Below, in pieces: positions 275 through 6,697 of a stretch of DNA of 15,905 bases; positions within the stretch are counted from its first letter, which is position 1, and each line of letters starts with the position of its first letter. The notes beneath the pieces are model-generated. The model saw only the letters and a list, made by a program, of their open reading frames with translations, was not told the origin of the DNA and searched no databases. The stretch lies in IMG/VR virus record IMGVR_UViG_3300005663_001601. One strand, written 5' to 3'. The stretch comes from a virus. The position numbers were made by a program, and so were the translations under genes.

Positions 275-467
275 TGTTTTTTCCTTTCAGTGTCTTTGAT
301 AAATTTAAGATGCTTGCGGCAAAAATAGCTAGAAAAAAGTTTACAACGAAGAACAGAACAAAGGAAGGCCCCCAAGCACTAACCACTAAGTTATAAACAA
401 AAAATCCAGCGTTGCCGATAAATATAATAGCCCATAGGCCAATTAAAAATCTTACAAAAATTCTCAT
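252..467 (-). CDS. Small membrane protein, 71 aa, two predicted TM helices
   Basis: Hydrophobic ORF with a 4-nt overlap to the upstream gene and about 23 nt to the downstream gene. No recognisable family. Confidence 0.4.
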   Translation of the reverse strand: MRIFVRFLIGLWAIIFIGNAGFFVYNLVVSAWGPSFVLFFVVNFFLAIFAASILNLSKTLKGKNNEESSSG

Positions 468-846: not shown

Positions 847-920
847 TGGTACCCGGTGAGGGAATCAAACCCCCATAAGAACGTTATGAGCGTCCGGTTC
901 TATCATTGAACTAACCGGGC
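847..920 (-). tRNA. tRNA-Met (anticodon CAU; elongator or possibly Ile2/lysidine type), encoded CCA
   Basis: Reverse complement GCCCGGTTAGTTCAATGATAGAACCGGACGCTCATAACGTTCTTATGGGGGTTTGATTCCCTCACCGGGTACCA folds as a cloverleaf. The acceptor stem is 7 bp with a G1.U72 wobble, the D stem is GTTC/GAAC, and the anticodon loop is CUCAUAA. The T arm is GGGGG-TTTGATT-CCCTC, with U where C56 normally sits. Discriminator A plus CCA. Confidence 0.85.
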
Positions 921-1279: not shown

Positions 1280-1511
1280 CCTTATCTATCTCCTCTATTT
1301 TAATTAGGAGTATCTTAAAACCAAAAAATACTCCAAGCATCCACCCAATCACGACACTTAAACATGTAGCAAACTCAATCCAGTTATTGCTTAACACACC
1401 TATAACCATCACAAAGAGGATCACCAGAACACTTACTGTAACCGATGGCAAGGACATAATAAAGTCAACATCAACACCAGTCTCTTTTATCTTGTCAAGC
1501 ATATTTGACAT
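1269..1511 (-). CDS. Small membrane protein, 80 aa, two TM helices
   Basis: Hydrophobic ORF whose stop abuts the ALDH start region. Confidence 0.4.
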   Translation of the reverse strand: MSNMLDKIKETGVDVDFIMSLPSVTVSVLVILFVMVIGVLSNNWIEFATCLSVVIGWMLGVFFGFKILLIKIEEIDKDEG

Positions 1512-1512
1512 A

Positions 1513-3036
1513 TCAATCTCCTACATCAAATTTAATACCTTGGGCCAATGGCAACTCTGTAGAATAGTTTATCGTGTTAGTAGCACGACGCATGTAGCTC
1601 TTCCAAGCATCGCTTCCGCTTTCGCGACCACCACCTGTTTCTTTTTCTCCACCAAACGCGCCTCCTATTTCTGCGCCACTTGGTCCGATGTTTACATTAG
1701 CAAGTCCACAGTCACTTGTCGATAGGAATTTTTCTGTCTCTCTAATATCGGTGCTAAAAATACAAGAACTTAATCCTTGTGGGACATCATTGTGCATTTC
1801 TAGAGCATCATCAAAATCACTGTATTTCATTACATAAAGAATAGGAGCAAATGTCTCACGTTTGACAATAGCTGACTGTTCTGGCATTTCAACAATTGCC
1901 GGCTTTACATAGTATCCATACGAAGAAAATTTATCTTCTAATACGCGCTCACCGCCAAACACAGTTCCGCCTTCATTGGCAGCTACGGATAACGAAAGCT
2001 CCATATCACCAAACGCAGATCCATCAATCAATGGACCAACTAGATTTTTTTCATCAAGCGGATTTCCGATAGAGATTGTATTGTATGCCTTCTTAAGTTT
2101 TCGCACAAGATCATCATGAATATCTTCGTGAACAATAACACGCCTTAATGTAGTGCAACGTTGTCCAGCAGTTCCAACAGCACTAAAGACGATAGCTTTA
2201 AGTGCCATATCCAAATCTGCAGATGGTGTGACTATCATACCATTATTGCCACCCAGCTCCAGAAGATAACGTCCCAGACGACTTGCAACATAGGGAGCAA
2301 TAAACTGACCCATCTGTGTGCTGCCTGTAGCACTCACGAGCTTAATTTTATCGCTTTCAGCAAGTGCGGCGCCAGCTTGCGAGCCACCGAAAACCACTTG
2401 TGACAGATTTTCAGGAACGTCATCAAACTTTTCATCAAAATTGTCCACAGCATTCAAGAATAGTTGCTGACAAGCTAACGCTGTGAGAGGAGTTTTTTCA
2501 CTTGGCTTCCAGATAACACTGTCCCCACAAACTATTGCCAACGCAAAGTTCCAAGACCAAACAGCAACAGGAAAGTTGAAAGCAGTGATAACAGCGACAG
2601 GACCTAGTGGGTGCCATGTTTCCATTAGTTTATGTCCAGGACGCTCAGAAGCAATTGTTAGACCATATAGTTGACGCGACAGTCCTACAGCAAAATCACA
2701 GATATCAATCATCTCCTGAACTTCGCCGAGTCCTTCTTGAAGAATTTTACCGTTCTCAATTGTGACAAGCTCTCCAAGTGGCTGTTTATATATACGAAGC
2801 TGTTCAGCGAAAAGTCTTATTAACTCACCACGTTGTGGACCTGGAACATTTTTCCACTCATTAAATGCTTCTGTTGACTGTTTAATAGTCGGCAACATCT
2901 CTTTTACAGAAGAGATAGTGTCTTGAACTGAACCGATCTCCGTGCCATTAATCGGAGTGTAAACGAGCCGGTTTCCTTCAAACGAAGATGGAACAACGCC
3001 CATGCTTTTTAAAAGATAATCTACTTTTTCTTTCAT
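1513..3036 (-). CDS. Aldehyde dehydrogenase of the ALDH7 (antiquitin; alpha-aminoadipic / piperideine-6-carboxylate semialdehyde dehydrogenase) type, 507 aa
   Basis: Catalytic motifs ELGGNN (general base Glu) and GQRCTT (nucleophile Cys) are present. Long stretches resemble human ALDH7A1 as I recall it: GKILQEGLGEVQEMIDICDFAVGLSR versus [26 protein letters not shown], and a C-terminus ..GAEIGGAFGGEKETGGGRESGSDAWKSYMRRATNTINYS.. that is nearly identical. Confidence 0.93.
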   Translation of the reverse strand: MKEKVDYLLKSMGVVPSSFEGNRLVYTPINGTEIGSVQDTISSVKEMLPTIKQSTEAFNEWKNVPGPQRGELIRLFAEQLRIYKQPLGELVTIENGKILQEGLGEVQEMIDICDFAVGLSRQLYGLTIASERPGHKLMETWHPLGPVAVITAFNFPVAVWSWNFALAIVCGDSVIWKPSEKTPLTALACQQLFLNAVDNFDEKFDDVPENLSQVVFGGSQAGAALAESDKIKLVSATGSTQMGQFIAPYVASRLGRYLLELGGNNGMIVTPSADLDMALKAIVFSAVGTAGQRCTTLRRVIVHEDIHDDLVRKLKKAYNTISIGNPLDEKNLVGPLIDGSAFGDMELSLSVAANEGGTVFGGERVLEDKFSSYGYYVKPAIVEMPEQSAIVKRETFAPILYVMKYSDFDDALEMHNDVPQGLSSCIFSTDIRETEKFLSTSDCGLANVNIGPSGAEIGGAFGGEKETGGGRESGSDAWKSYMRRATNTINYSTELPLAQGIKFDVGD

Positions 3037-3037
3037 A

Positions 3038-3535
3038 TTAGCTCATCCTTTTTCTGATCATCCACCAAACTGCTAATGCGCCTACCATCTTAACCAGTGT
3101 CATTATTATAACACCCTGTATAGAGAAAAATCCAATCATATATAGAAACAATGCGCTATCAATTGGGGTTGCAAGTACGCTCGATAACAATACACGTTGC
3201 GGAAATGGACGTCCCGTAAACGAATAAACACCCCAATCTGCAAACTCACTAACAAGAAATGCCGTAACGCTTGCGATAGCAATAGTTGGATCTGCTAAGA
3301 CATAGCTTAATGCACCAGCCAGCAACATTGCTAAGATAACATAATGCCCAACTTCCCTCTGAGCAAAATCGCGAAACACAAAAATCAAGCCAACTAAAAA
3401 TGTTGCACTTGGAATAACGATACCTTCTCCAAGTGGCAATATCGGCAAAACACTAAACGCATAGTTTACTATTACAATTGACGCGACATAAATTAATGTC
3501 CACCAAATTTTTAAATCTTTAAGCGTCATCTTCAT
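3038..3535 (-). CDS. Polytopic membrane protein, 165 aa, probably YhhQ/DUF165 (Vut; queuosine-precursor transporter) family
   Basis: About 5 TM segments. Motifs IFVFRDFAQREVG, ADWGVYSF.GR and SSVLATPIDSALFLYMIGFF match my recollection of E. coli YhhQ (IFLATDLTVRIFG, LDVHVFNRLR, STLFGNVSDTLAFFFIAF). Shorter than the roughly 220-aa typical member. Confidence 0.5.
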   Translation of the reverse strand: MKMTLKDLKIWWTLIYVASIVIVNYAFSVLPILPLGEGIVIPSATFLVGLIFVFRDFAQREVGHYVILAMLLAGALSYVLADPTIAIASVTAFLVSEFADWGVYSFTGRPFPQRVLLSSVLATPIDSALFLYMIGFFSIQGVIIMTLVKMVGALAVWWMIRKRMS

Positions 3536-4452: not shown

Positions 4453-4692
4453 TTACCACTCCCAAAATGCTTTGCCTAGTTTGTTAACTTTTTTACTAAA
4501 AGCATTTTCTTGTAATAATGTAAACATAACAGTTATCATAGCGACTAGATAAAAAATCAACCAAGCTGCGGCGCCACTTGAACCAACCATAATGTAAATA
4601 GAGCCCGCGGGCCAAAATGCTAAAGAAACCATAGCAAATAATAACGTCACTTTCACAATAGCCTTGATCATATTTTTAAACAATGTAAACAC
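4453..4692 (-). CDS. Small membrane protein, 79 aa
   Basis: Two hydrophobic helices. Its stop is 1 nt from the upstream start. Confidence 0.4.
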   Translation of the reverse strand: MFTLFKNMIKAIVKVTLLFAMVSLAFWPAGSIYIMVGSSGAAAWLIFYLVAMITVMFTLLQENAFSKKVNKLGKAFWEW

Positions 4693-4701
4693 TTCTTTCT
4701 C

Positions 4702-5535
4702 CTACTTTTCAAAAGCAGCTACGTATTCGCCTCTAGTTTGACCACAAGCTGCACCAGTATTAGCTCCATCAGACGCATGATATTCAACAGTATAACCATC
4801 TTTCGTCAAAATGTCAACGAACTCCTGTATCCTATTGCTACCAGTAAATGTCACACCAGAAACCAGATTGAATCGACCAAACTTAAGATACCAGCTTGTA
4901 TCCAAGTATTTCTTGATCAGTTCCAGATCCTCATCGCGGTCATTAATCCCATCCATAAGAGCAAAATTAAGCTCAATGGATCTGTTGGGTTGATTCTTTC
5001 TATAAGTTTCCATTGCAGCGATAACTTCTTCAATTGGACTAGCTAATGGCATTAACTCTTTCCTTATCACTGAATCTAAGCTATGCATCGACACTTGTAG
5101 CTTGAAAGGAACATCAAACTCTTCCCTGGAAAGGTCAACAATTCTTTTTGGTGCTGCGCCCGATGTTGACAGTGCCAATCGACAGTTAGGATAATATGAC
5201 GGAAGCAACTGCATTGCTGTGACAACGTTGCTATAGTTTAGTAGAGGTTCGCCTTCGCCCATAAAAGAGAACAAGATAACCTTGCCTTCTACAAGATTAT
5301 CTTCCAACATTTCGTGACACTGGTGTAGCATCTCTCCATACGTTAGGTTCACTGTTTTCTCTGGTCCTGGACTGGCGCAGAAAGTACATCCTACAGCACA
5401 GCTTAATTGTGTTGAAAAGCATACCACTTGTTTTTCGGGTCGGTTAAAATAGATAGCTTCGGCGTGTTTGTCTCCTAAATCAACCAGTACCTTTTGTACT
5501 CGCGCTTGCCCCATTGGTATAAGTTGTTCTGTCAT
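4702..5535 (-). CDS. Radical-SAM RNA methyltransferase of the RlmN/Cfr family, compact form of 277 aa lacking the N-terminal domain
   Basis: CAVGCTFC (CxxxCxxC) is preceded by VVCFSTQ (cf. RlmN LCVSSQ with Cys118). FMGEGEPLLN matches RlmN MGMGEPLLN. LALSTSG matches VTLSTSG. The C-terminal GAACGQT matches RlmN/Cfr DIDAACGQL, which carries the second mechanistic Cys. Collinear similarity runs through the whole core. Confidence 0.85.
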   Translation of the reverse strand: MTEQLIPMGQARVQKVLVDLGDKHAEAIYFNRPEKQVVCFSTQLSCAVGCTFCASPGPEKTVNLTYGEMLHQCHEMLEDNLVEGKVILFSFMGEGEPLLNYSNVVTAMQLLPSYYPNCRLALSTSGAAPKRIVDLSREEFDVPFKLQVSMHSLDSVIRKELMPLASPIEEVIAAMETYRKNQPNRSIELNFALMDGINDRDEDLELIKKYLDTSWYLKFGRFNLVSGVTFTGSNRIQEFVDILTKDGYTVEYHASDGANTGAACGQTRGEYVAAFEK

Positions 5536-5698
5536 TTTTTTGCTCCTCGTATATAAACTTTTTGCTACAATAAAAACAAATGCTATAATTTCTACCTGTG
5601 TCGGGTATCAAGTAGTAAACGATTGGGTGATCGTGTGGCGCGTCAGGTCCAGTACATACTACATATTTTGAATGGACAATAACGATCTCTTTCTCCAC
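5480..5698 (-). CDS. zf-CHCC zinc-finger protein (NDUFS6 C-terminal-domain-like), 72 aa
   Basis: VVCTGPDAPHDHPIVYYLIPDTGRNYSICFYCSKKF fits the C-x8-HP-VY..L...C-x-YC..F pattern of the NDUFS6 zinc-finger domain (cf. [35 protein letters not shown]). Its 3' end overlaps the RlmN-like start by about 56 nt in another frame. Confidence 0.6.
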   Translation of the reverse strand: MEKEIVIVHSKYVVCTGPDAPHDHPIVYYLIPDTGRNYSICFYCSKKFIYEEQKNDRTTYTNGASASTKGTG

Positions 5699-5728
5699 TA
5701 TTTTTTTATCCTAATATTACATTTCATC

Positions 5729-5742
5729 CCATTGACCAATGG
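5729..5742. promoter_or_regulatory. 14-bp perfect palindrome CCATTGACCAATGG between tRNA-Leu and the zf-CHCC gene; possible operator or -35-containing promoter element
   Basis: CCATTG-AC-CAATGG read directly from the sequence. On the minus strand, TTGGTCA followed about 16-17 nt later by TATTAG resembles sigma70 -35/-10 elements upstream of the zf-CHCC ATG. Confidence 0.25.
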
Positions 5743-5783
5743 AAATAATGTTGTAAATCTGTCATATTTTTGCTCCTTATATT

Positions 5784-5867
5784 TGGTGCCCGTAGAGGGA
5801 GTCGAACCCCCACTCCCGAAGGAACTGGATCTTGAATCCAGCGTGGCTACCGTTTCACCATACGGGC
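5784..5867 (-). tRNA. tRNA-Leu (anticodon CAA), type II with a long variable arm, encoded CCA
   Basis: Reverse complement GCCCGTATGGTGAAACGGTAGCCACGCTGGATTCAAGATCCAGTTCCTTCGGGAGTGGGGGTTCGACTCCCTCTACGGGCACCA. Perfect 7-bp acceptor stem and a 3-bp D stem. Anticodon stem CTGGA/TCCAG with loop UUCAAGA. Variable arm TCC-TTCG-GGA and T arm GGGGG-TTCGACT-CCCTC. The 5' end is 1 nt from the histidine-kinase stop codon. Confidence 0.9.
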
Positions 5868-5868
5868 T

Positions 5869-6630
5869 TTATTTTGCTTTCGGCAACGTTAGAGTAACAG
5901 TCGTTCCAACTCCTAATTCGCTTACGACATCAATATTGCCGCCCATAAGTTCTGCTAGCTCTACAGATAACGGCAATCCTAAACCTGTGCCCTCATATTG
6001 TCGACCCAATCCAGCACCTACTTGCCCGAATTTTAACAGAGCAGACTTCACTCCGTCTTCGTCCATGCCTATTCCATCATCTTCAATGACAATAATTACA
6101 TTATCACCAACAAGGCATTTGATATCAATGTTGCCATTCACATCAGTAAACTTAACAGAATTCGACAGTAAATTCAATATAATTTGTTTTAACCGAATCG
6201 GATCAGCATATACATATAGATCATCACAACTTGTCTTAACTTCAACATTGATTGACTTTTCTTGTGCTCTTTCAGCGATAAGTGTGATACAGTCTTTAAA
6301 GACCGAACACATACTAATTTTTTCTGGATGGATTTCAGTCTTACCAGCCTCAATTTTTGAGAGATCAAGAATATCGTTGATTAACTTGAGCAAGTGATGA
6401 CCACTTTCAAAAATGTCATTGGCATATGCTTTATGTTTATCGGACAATTCTCCGCCTATTCCGCTCGTCATAATTTCAGAGAAGCCAATGATAGCATTTA
6501 ACGGCGTTCTAAGCTCATGACTCATATTGGCTAGGAATTCAGATTTGGACTTATTCTCGGCCACTGCAATATTTTTAGTCTCTTCGTGTTCGCTAACCAA
6601 GGTCATTAGTTCTTCAATTGTGCGATCCAT
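5869..6630 (-). CDS. Histidine kinase with HisKA and HATPase_c domains only (no sensor, no receiver), 253 aa
   Basis: H-box MSHELRTPLN, N-box LLSNSVKFT, G1 IEDDGIGM, G2 GTGLGLPLS. Only about 35 residues precede the H-box. Confidence 0.85.
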   Translation of the reverse strand: MDRTIEELMTLVSEHEETKNIAVAENKSKSEFLANMSHELRTPLNAIIGFSEIMTSGIGGELSDKHKAYANDIFESGHHLLKLINDILDLSKIEAGKTEIHPEKISMCSVFKDCITLIAERAQEKSINVEVKTSCDDLYVYADPIRLKQIILNLLSNSVKFTDVNGNIDIKCLVGDNVIIVIEDDGIGMDEDGVKSALLKFGQVGAGLGRQYEGTGLGLPLSVELAELMGGNIDVVSELGVGTTVTLTLPKAK

Positions 6631-6697
6631 GTTTGGTCTCCCTCATTCTGATATGTCTCAACACAATAATAGCATGGATCGGGTATATGTCAAGCAT

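Follow-up and report, generated by a model that had tools for sequence, protein, structure and literature searches.

The 15,905-nucleotide (nt) viral record IMGVR_UViG_3300005663_001601 (the window, by which the whole stretch of DNA analysed is meant) encodes on its minus (−) strand, at 5869..6630, a histidine kinase of 253 amino acids (aa) that has a dimerisation and histidine phosphotransfer (DHp) domain and a catalytic/ATP-binding (CA) domain only. Comparison with related loci points to a new family of jumbo-phage kinases in which the sensor appears to have been deleted or swapped at a fixed locus, the core being kept under selection. The sensor-less protein is most likely a PAS-deleted derivative on which selection still acts. 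A probability of about 0.5 is assigned to its being constitutively active, as kinase and/or phosphatase, on a regulator whose gene lies elsewhere (most probably in the host), and thereby fixing one host pathway during infection. The feature stands well beyond chance, as judged from hidden Markov model E-values, synteny, and the ratio of nonsynonymous to synonymous substitution (dN/dS).

A kinase core with a variable front end

According to the list of open reading frames (ORFs) and its translations, the gene comprises 253 codons and a stop. A Pfam scan of the protein returned HisKA, the DHp helical hairpin (residues 28–96; 6343..6549 (−); PF00512, E 7.6e-23), and HATPase_c, the CA domain (residues 143–252; 5875..6204 (−); PF02518, E 6.6e-25), and no domain N-terminal to residue 28; at its other end, the protein stops one residue past the HATPase_c match. 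The phospho-acceptor His38 (codon CAT at 6517..6519 (−)) lies in the H box SHELRTPLNA, where Thr42 completes an H-E-x-x-T motif in the translation. The N box (N153, N157, K160, F161, and T162, from the translation and the family alignment), the G1 box (D184-x-G186-x-G188), the F box (F201-G-Q203), and the G2 box (G214-T-G216-L-G218-L) are also present, and the residues of all five motifs are invariant across 21 aligned relatives. An earlier note, made from the letters of the window, had described a 253-aa protein with intact H, N, G1, and G2 boxes and essentially no sensor domain. The boxes are borne out by translation, Pfam, and alignment; the missing sensor is borne out by Pfam, by a structural model that starts in helix alpha-1, and by a stop four codons upstream of the gene. 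The stop-to-stop frame starts at 6642, past an in-frame TGA at 6645..6643, and at most four extra codons are possible ahead of the start, so that no N-terminal sensor domain is hidden there.

The histidine sits in a DHp hairpin and the ATP domain has the Bergerat fold with N, G1, F, and G2 boxes, as in class-I HisKA kinases. The input domain N-terminal to DHp of a canonical sensor is absent, as is the fused receiver or HPt domain of a hybrid or phosphorelay kinase, the receiver (REC) profile described below being negative on the protein. By these features, it would be a bona fide class-I histidine kinase core and neither a sensor kinase nor a hybrid kinase. A 241-aa plus-strand ORF (5672..6397), antisense to the kinase gene and to the tRNA gene beside it, is presumably a shadow ORF.

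In the AlphaFold2 model (mean pLDDT 80.8), a helix at residues 2–56, a loop, and a second helix at 64–94 are followed by an alpha/beta domain. Helix alpha-1 begins at residue 2, with residues 2–27 forming its extension ahead of the HisKA match; pLDDT falls below 50 over three or more residues in the ATP lid (residues 203–210) and nowhere else. The kinase is thus exactly a DHp plus a CA domain. The best Foldseek matches are to the entire cytoplasmic core of HK853 (E 3e-20, ~232 aligned columns), and phmmer against the Protein Data Bank (PDB) matches the kinase to histidine kinase cores at E 2e-42 to 5e-40. The HK853 core of Thermotoga maritima (PDB 2C2A, 3DGE, and related entries) is co-linear with phage residues 14–251 at 32%–34% identity. 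The H, N, G1, F, and G2 motifs and the fold are common to both, His38 aligns with His260 of HK853, and the phage kinase is essentially a natural counterpart of the engineered HK853 'cp' construct. Native HK853 has a membrane-anchored sensor, which the phage kinase lacks; its partner RR468 is known from co-crystal structures, whereas the phage kinase has no known partner.

A protein search found 13 close relatives at 71%–95% identity, after which identity drops to 57% or less. Wherever flanks exist, the kinase gene comes after hsp20 (loci L001–L003, L005, L006, L008, L010, and L011). What varies is the N-terminal part. The 253-aa form is represented by the window protein and nine database relatives from many samples, and one further relative of 257 aa extends this sensor-less class to 253–257 aa. 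Three proteins of 288–301 aa (P0010, P0011, and P0013) apparently retain just the last PAS strand and a linker. P0008, of 410 aa, has a complete PAS domain and occupies the same locus (L008) as the sensor-less kinase; P0012 (L017), of 443 aa and 71% core identity to the window kinase, has two hydrophobic stretches, presumably membrane-spanning, and a PilJ-like domain detected as a faint Pfam hit. PAS is also present in the outgroup P0014 (57% identity), which comes from a phage-like locus of small ORFs with 38% GC (L018).

At the DNA level, the short form lacks ~476 nt that encode PAS in L008. The ribosome-binding site (RBS) and ATG are arranged identically in the window and in L008, where the ORF runs on into PAS, and the alignment of orthologous loci shows promoter, RBS, and reading frame intact in each copy compared. 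As relatives bear a PAS or membrane sensor on this kinase at this locus, the sensor-less state would be a derived deletion and not an isolated oddity; the PAS remnants, together with the PAS domain of P0014, argue for loss of a sensor rather than gain. A neighbour-joining tree of the core is poorly resolved, with architectures interleaved, and contains a single supported clade of mixed architecture (two 290–301-aa forms with one 253-aa form; 91% bootstrap). An attempt to order the sensor losses from this tree was abandoned as support was too poor; either repeated sensor losses or recombinational exchange of the N-terminal module would account for the pattern.

Pairwise Nei–Gojobori comparisons over the 236-residue core gave a dN/dS of 0.07–0.18 for every pair, pairs of sensor-less copies included. 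The window and L011, both sensor-less, differ by a dN of 0.12 and a dS of 1.13; for the window and the PAS form in L008, the ratio is 0.089. The gene is thus maintained by purifying selection in one phage lineage.

The best cellular matches, at 45%–53% core identity, are PAS-HisKA-HATPase kinases of alphaproteobacterial type and short orphan kinases, among them P0078 (from a Rhodospirillaceae metagenome-assembled genome), P0112 (Paramagnetospirillum), and P0027. Their alpha-1 sequence, KSEFLANMSHELRTPLNAIIGFSE, is nearly identical to that of the phage kinase; their architecture is that of the 410-aa phage variant, and they too are orphans with no adjacent regulator. Unlike the phage loci, which have 38%–40% GC throughout the lineage, they lie on chromosomes of 51%–60% GC, and their DHp loop is one residue longer and reads F-G-P where the phage family has G-G-E/D. 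The ancestor was probably a PAS-HisKA-HATPase kinase, a type frequent among the orphan kinases of Alphaproteobacteria.

Automatic annotation by the Joint Genome Institute (JGI) often labels these homologues PleC, but a PleC/DivJ/PdhS identity was rejected because NCBIfam scores fall far below cut-off: the kinase reaches 171.9 bits for DivJ (NF050805; cut-off 1000), 151.4 for PdhS (NF041593; cut-off 2000), and 131.5 for PhoR (TIGR02966; cut-off 334.2). No NCBIfam equivalog, with DivJ, PdhS, TorS, BarA, and PhoR among them, comes near its cut-off, and the JGI labels are therefore no evidence for a DivK-type target. The cores of TorS, BarA, and LuxQ score as well as or better than DivJ and PdhS, so the resemblance to the latter seems to be at the level of a generic core. 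A role in a defence system was also rejected; PADLOC gave a single marginal match (PDC-M43B; E 4.9e-4, 17 bits) that does not qualify the kinase as a defence component.

Genome setting and expression unit

The window is gene-dense, with 39% GC, and the minus strand carries each ORF that has a family match along with both tRNA genes; dozens of tiny ORFans are carried on one strand with the tRNAs interspersed. It is 99.8% identical to the 45.7-kb JGI contig Ga0073583_1177702, near-identical pieces come from marine-sediment assemblies, and a 95%-identical orthologue of the kinase lies on a 142-kb scaffold (of which 61 to 82 kb was read). One link to known viruses is an 858-aa protein (9846..12422 (−)) with the shoulder and Vault_3 repeat domains of the major vault protein (MVP). 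In an alignment-based scan of IMG/VR, at least 117 viral contigs proved to carry a relative of this MVP-like protein (5 to 501 kb in size for the 80 listed), and huge phages with genomes of 462 kb and 735 kb encode proteins ~40% identical to it. The closest IMG/VR relative found in this way, at 60% identity, is on the 359-kb contig L108, which is syntenic with the contig of the window over ~14 kb, from VWA, OmpA, and ABC genes through the MVP-like gene and DUF1508 to hsp20. Past hsp20, L108 has unrelated genes, with neither the kinase nor tRNA-Leu; as synteny ends there, the kinase occupies the border of a variable region specific to the lineage. A reading of the 585-aa ORFs in L014 and L108 as the far side of an inserted island was rejected, the two being unrelated (BLASTP E 0.75).

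PHROG matches include Hsp20 (phrog_432), a YhhQ/Vut_1-like protein (phrog_4899), Phage_30_3 (phrog_652), and TelA. Other gene content includes an ABC importer, a radical-SAM enzyme, an aldehyde dehydrogenase, RpiB, Flp/RcpC, and ClpS. No capsid, terminase, or tail gene occurs in the ~42 kb read of this phage, so the viral context is strongly supported without being closed. A jumbo-phage accessory region, with the kinase as an accessory gene ('moron') of a large marine-sediment phage, is strongly supported as the setting by this gene content and synteny, and an ordinary chromosomal context is disfavoured; the earlier note had considered a phage or mobile-element context. The part read is probably a small share of the genome, which probably exceeds 300 kb.

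Other searches returned little. With the whole window as query, megablast matched none of 50,697 phage records, and a search of IMG/VR with the kinase found no family member. Among 185,579 species genomes, relatives of the kinase reach at most 43% identity (Halioglobus, Haliea, Shewanella, Alteromonas, and others), with no prophage and no host link; the result, which partly reflects the generic G1-box pattern used, means that none of these genomes has this kinase gene. MW462191.1 (L004; 103 kb; 44.6% identity), the top protein match among 'phage' records and filed as 'Bacteriophage sp.', was not used as viral evidence. It is apparently bacterial, since the region inspected encodes PleC, aminopeptidase N, GlnE, HtrA, and a ParS/CprR two-component pair. 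Several more 'phage' records among the tblastn matches to the kinase look like bacterial contamination.

The kinase gene appears to have a promoter of its own. A sigma-70-like site with an extended −10 (6666..6693 (−); TTGACA, 16 nt, TG-n-TATTAT; 11 of 12 consensus matches) lies 35 nt upstream of the ATG and was the best in a 2-kb region by consensus scan. Its −35 TTGACA is invariant and its −10 retained in five orthologous loci, the PAS-bearing one included, and the intergenic region ahead of the kinase is conserved in all N-terminal forms. A Shine–Dalgarno sequence, GGGAG (6638..6642 (−)), can be read 7 nt before the ATG. The constant upstream neighbour is the small heat-shock gene hsp20 (6772..7209 (−); Pfam HSP20). 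In the gap between the two genes, the interval 6690..6775 folds into two stable hairpins (−29.1 kcal/mol, z = −7.5 against shuffles), and the strong one at 6692..6735 (−), seen in RNA folding and alignment, is probably the hsp20 terminator, albeit one that a terminator scan did not call because its T tract is short. A regulatory RNA is the other interpretation admitted by these hairpins; the second stem, by eye, is still paired in L011 despite changes on both sides.

On its other side, the kinase gene abuts a class II tRNA-Leu(CAA) gene with an encoded CCA end (5784..5867 (−); ARAGORN). The earlier note had placed the stop codon 1 nt from the tRNA 5′ end, and ARAGORN and Rfam agree on position 5867 (RF00005 match at 5787..5867, model position 1 at 5867, 53.9 bits), which leaves the base at 5868 (−) as sole spacer after the stop codon (5871..5869). 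The junction AAAGCA(A/G)AATAA-A-GCCCGTATGG is identical in the window, L005, L008, L010, and L011, and the 1-nt gap recurs in L001, L002, L003, L006, and L007; the junction is invariant across loci whose synonymous divergence is ~1. Base changes in the anticodon stem of L011 and L008 compensate one another while CAA is kept, which indicates by covariation a functional tRNA-Leu. No terminator-like site was found between kinase and tRNA-Leu in the terminator scan, and the RBS of the next ORF lies ~8 nt past the CCA end. In more distant members, the tRNA differs: a tRNA-Arg(CCT) gene (1876..1951) lies 6 nt past the stop of P0012 in L017, where a tRNA-Asp gene (311..388) lies upstream and a GreA-like gene follows the kinase, and a suppressor-type tRNA with a CTA anticodon (1500..1577 (+); labelled 'Pyl' by ARAGORN) lies 45 nt past the stop of P0014 in L018. 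With a tRNA directly after the kinase, but not the same one, the gene sits in a tRNA-rich part of the genome, and the adjacency probably reflects no more than tight packing and co-transcription.

Partner regulator, proposed role, and rival explanations

A Pfam scan of all 30 plausible ORFs of the window found no Response_reg or Hpt domain. Six-frame translations were also searched with the REC profile, built from CheY, Spo0F, and eight N-terminal receivers of hybrid homologues; as positive controls, it recovered the regulator encoded at the bacterial locus L004 (E 2e-21) and, in the huge phage LR756501, a hybrid-kinase receiver (E 4.5e-22). With this profile, no receiver domain was found in the window, in 35 kb (positions 4455–39728) of the 45.7-kb JGI contig (L012 and L014), or in ~6.7 kb more on three contigs reached via a SpoU methylase gene (L104–L106). 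The reach in the same phage is from ~14 kb before the kinase to ~28 kb after it, ~42 kb in all, over which no response regulator is paired with the kinase, adjacent or nearby. The 13–21-kb loci of the orthologues L005, L010, and L011 were likewise without one, and the full set negative with the profile comprises the window, L001–L003, L005–L008, L010–L015, L017, L018, and L104–L107. That no response regulator is encoded in the window, as the earlier note had it, is thus confirmed, and the orphan status extends across the ~42 kb read of the phage.

Receivers do occur in related phages. Two canonical stand-alone receivers (Pfam Response_reg, E 3e-16 to 3e-17) lie a few kb from the MVP-like gene in L126 (13274..13726 (−)) and L131 (13807..14214 (−)), and a cREC-type receiver lies on a related jumbo-phage contig, L187 (17720..18202 (+)); in 80 related jumbo-phage loci, no kinase was found near a receiver. 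The comparison of DHp specificity residues that the earlier note had called for could be run on homologues and did not discriminate between partners, as the alpha-1 positions T42, N45, A46, G49, and F50 do not vary between the phage family and over 100 homologues from cells. Positions in alpha-2 and in the loop differ between the two groups.

In isolation, DHp–CA cores retain autophosphorylation and phosphotransfer, HK853cp and EnvZc being examples. An in-frame deletion would have taken out the sensor and left the promoter, RBS, and start codon, and a kinase with no input domain should be blind to signals. Host RNA polymerase would produce a single transcript from the sigma-70-like promoter, covering the kinase, tRNA-Leu(CAA), and downstream genes, and RNase P cutting at the tRNA 5′ end would yield a kinase mRNA that ends 1 nt past the stop, with essentially no 3′ untranslated region. 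The protein would then dimerise via DHp, autophosphorylate on His38, and pass the phosphate to a regulator encoded elsewhere, most probably in the host, much as in the cross-phosphorylation of host response regulators that the earlier note had raised as a possibility. An E/D-x-x-T/N motif beside the histidine is, as Willett and Kirby reportedly described in 2012, the HisKA phosphatase motif and needed for phosphatase activity; since H-E-x-x-T is retained, the kinase could dephosphorylate the regulator instead. Acting in either direction, the kinase would lock a host pathway into a single state while infection lasts. A fuller account, offered tentatively, is that the lineage captured a PAS orphan kinase and removed or swapped its input module, possibly repeatedly, so that the commonest form would be constitutively active and signal-blind, delivered from a kinase–tRNA transcript whose 3′ end is set by RNase P, and would drive or drain a specific host regulator.

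Several points weigh against a constitutive enzyme acting on a host regulator. No target was found for the kinase, and neither the IMG/VR nor the species-genome search gave a host link. The ~42 kb inspected belongs to a genome that may exceed 300 kb, and two related jumbo-phage loci encode stand-alone receivers; the alpha-1 specificity positions, being the same everywhere, do not single out a partner. Which state the core takes once PAS is lost (kinase-on, phosphatase-on, or off) is not legible from sequence. The direction of loss rather than gain depends on the PAS remnants and one outgroup, given the poorly resolved core tree, and promoter and co-transcription are read at consensus level.

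The alternative with the most in its favour—possible, if distinctly doubtful—is a phage-own two-component pathway, with a cognate response regulator or an HPt/receiver relay encoded elsewhere in the same large genome. The 142-kb contig of the orthologue and the 359-kb relative make a larger genome probable, and hence a receiver beyond the ~42 kb read possible; the two canonical stand-alone receivers occurred in 1.58 Mb of related loci, which gives ~0.4 expected per 350 kb, and the 735-kb LR756501 has a hybrid kinase with its own receiver. Such a pathway sits poorly with the lack of a receiver on either side of the kinase or flanking four orthologous loci, with the orphan state of the nearest cellular homologues, and with the count of 0 in 80 related jumbo-phage loci for a receiver adjoining a kinase. 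A more unlikely proposal is that the protein acts on host histidine kinases, through mixed DHp dimers or kinase–kinase complexes as RetS does on GacS, or that it is a pure phosphatase or phosphate sink. RetS of Pseudomonas aeruginosa (PDB 6DK7, 6DK8, and 7N0E), a precedent for a kinase core that acts by binding the DHp of another kinase, has a kinase-core fold among the top matches to the phage kinase, and both its kinase region and the RetS–GacS DHp co-complex are among the sequence and structure matches. The modelled bare DHp–CA core with its long exposed alpha-1 helix would suit such binding, and the retained H-E-x-x-T motif would suit a phosphatase. RetS is, however, a large hybrid sensor with atypical catalysis. 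The phage kinase, unlike RetS, retains every canonical catalytic residue, its ATP-binding boxes are invariant under strong purifying selection that neither a pure binder nor a phosphatase-only protein would need, and no host kinase whose DHp would match has come to light here.

It is very improbable that the gene is a functionless passenger, left over from a captured PAS kinase and in decay. Its origin by deletion of a functional domain, the instability of the N-terminal region across relatives, and its position at a synteny breakpoint among variable accessory genes would fit decay, but dN/dS stays at 0.07–0.18 even between two sensor-less copies with a dS of ~1.1, the catalytic residues are all invariant, promoter, RBS, and frame are intact in every copy, and the 253-aa form is present in many samples. 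The selection analysis already largely refutes a remnant. Equally hard to sustain is the view that the window is not viral at all but bacterial or plasmid DNA of an ordinary kind, where a tRNA gene adjoins an orphan cytoplasmic kinase by chance. The missing virion genes, the failure of the kinase query to find any of these contigs in IMG/VR, the cellular-looking genes (ABC importer, aldehyde dehydrogenase, RpiB, Flp/RcpC, and ClpS), and the short orphan kinases of this subfamily on bacterial chromosomes (P0027) could be read in that way. Against them stand the MVP-like neighbour with its relatives on at least 117 IMG/VR viral contigs and its 40% identity to proteins of 462–735-kb phages, the ~14 kb of synteny with the 359-kb viral contig, the PHROG matches (Hsp20, phrog_4899, Phage_30_3/phrog_652, and TelA), the dozens of tiny one-strand ORFans among tRNAs, and the absence of the kinase gene from the 185,579 species genomes scanned.

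Phages interfere with host signalling, and kinases carried by them have been catalogued before, so that the idea and the kind are known and the novelty of the present family is modest. The PHROG kinase families phrog_20458, phrog_857, and phrog_10912 have profiles of 468–970 positions, of which the window kinase matches ~235 that cover the kinase core; as the match is limited to this stretch, typical members would be longer, with additional regions. A soil-phage study from 2024 described 13 'phoR' genes in phages, their ATP-binding motifs intact and their dN/dS less than 1; with these genes, its authors proposed, phages regulate host phosphate uptake via PhoB, biochemical validation being explicitly left undone (PMC10987575). 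The soil-phage genes and the window kinase are both phage-carried, the latter falling below the PhoR cut-off. Two-component genes are also listed in phages of ammonia oxidisers (bioRxiv 10.64898/2026.05.02.722434), and kinases go unmentioned in the main text of the huge-phage paper. The hybrid kinase of LR756501 (frame 36007..38277) lies ~17 kb from the MVP-like homologue and has 34% core identity to the window kinase; with a frame of ~757 codons and its own receiver, it is self-contained and not orthologous. Biochemical characterisation of a phage histidine kinase was not found in the literature searched, and existing reports amount to annotation tables and the proposal that phage 'phoR' steers the host Pho regulon.

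The jumbo-phage family offers a natural experiment, in that the same core at the same locus and behind the same promoter occurs with PAS, with a membrane sensor, or with neither, all of these forms being subject to purifying selection. Phosphorylation of a host regulator by the bare core, if shown, would reveal a direct route by which large phages lock a host pathway, and would give specificity studies a compact, soluble, naturally minimal kinase. Hot-wiring of this sort would, if real, be a viral strategy on a host two-component pathway, and alleles with and without the sensor exist in nature for comparison. Should a phage-encoded regulator turn up instead, the virus would have an autonomous two-component pathway. 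Either outcome would be modest rather than field-changing.

Neighbouring genes

The MVP-like protein appears to be widely conserved among jumbo phages; it matches no PHROG family and is not mentioned in the jumbo-phage review checked. The ABC importer looks complete (L012 1850..10900), with an NMT1-type binding protein, a BPD_transp_1 permease, and an ATPase (window 14448..15347 (−)). TelA, a VWA protein, and an OmpA-domain protein are encoded near it, and the stretch from VWA through the ATPase is conserved in L108. Just past the left end of the window lie genes for a Flp/Fap pilin and RcpC of Tad pilus assembly (L014 10768..12156), and beyond these are ClpS, a SpoU-type methylase, and an S8 peptidase of ~1,670 aa with He_PIG/cadherin-like repeats.

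The second tRNA gene of the window, for tRNA-Met, lies at 847..920 (−). After tRNA-Leu, relatives carry a 63-aa ORF (MTDLQQF...; for example, L005 10848..11055). In the window, at ~5700..5783 (−), the RBS and ATG of that ORF are retained and the frame, read by eye, stops after 13 codons; BLAST alignments of this region break at 5749..5752, which looks like a small local deletion. The amber-suppressor-type tRNA of the phage-like locus L018 may point to stop-codon recoding in that relative. Lastly, a radical-SAM enzyme (4702..5535 (−)), a Vut_1/YhhQ-like membrane protein (3038..3535 (−)), and a zf-CHCC protein (5480..5698 (−)) are encoded in the window; Vut_1/YhhQ is a family of queuosine-precursor transporters, and the cluster may be a 7-deazaguanine or other nucleoside-modification module.

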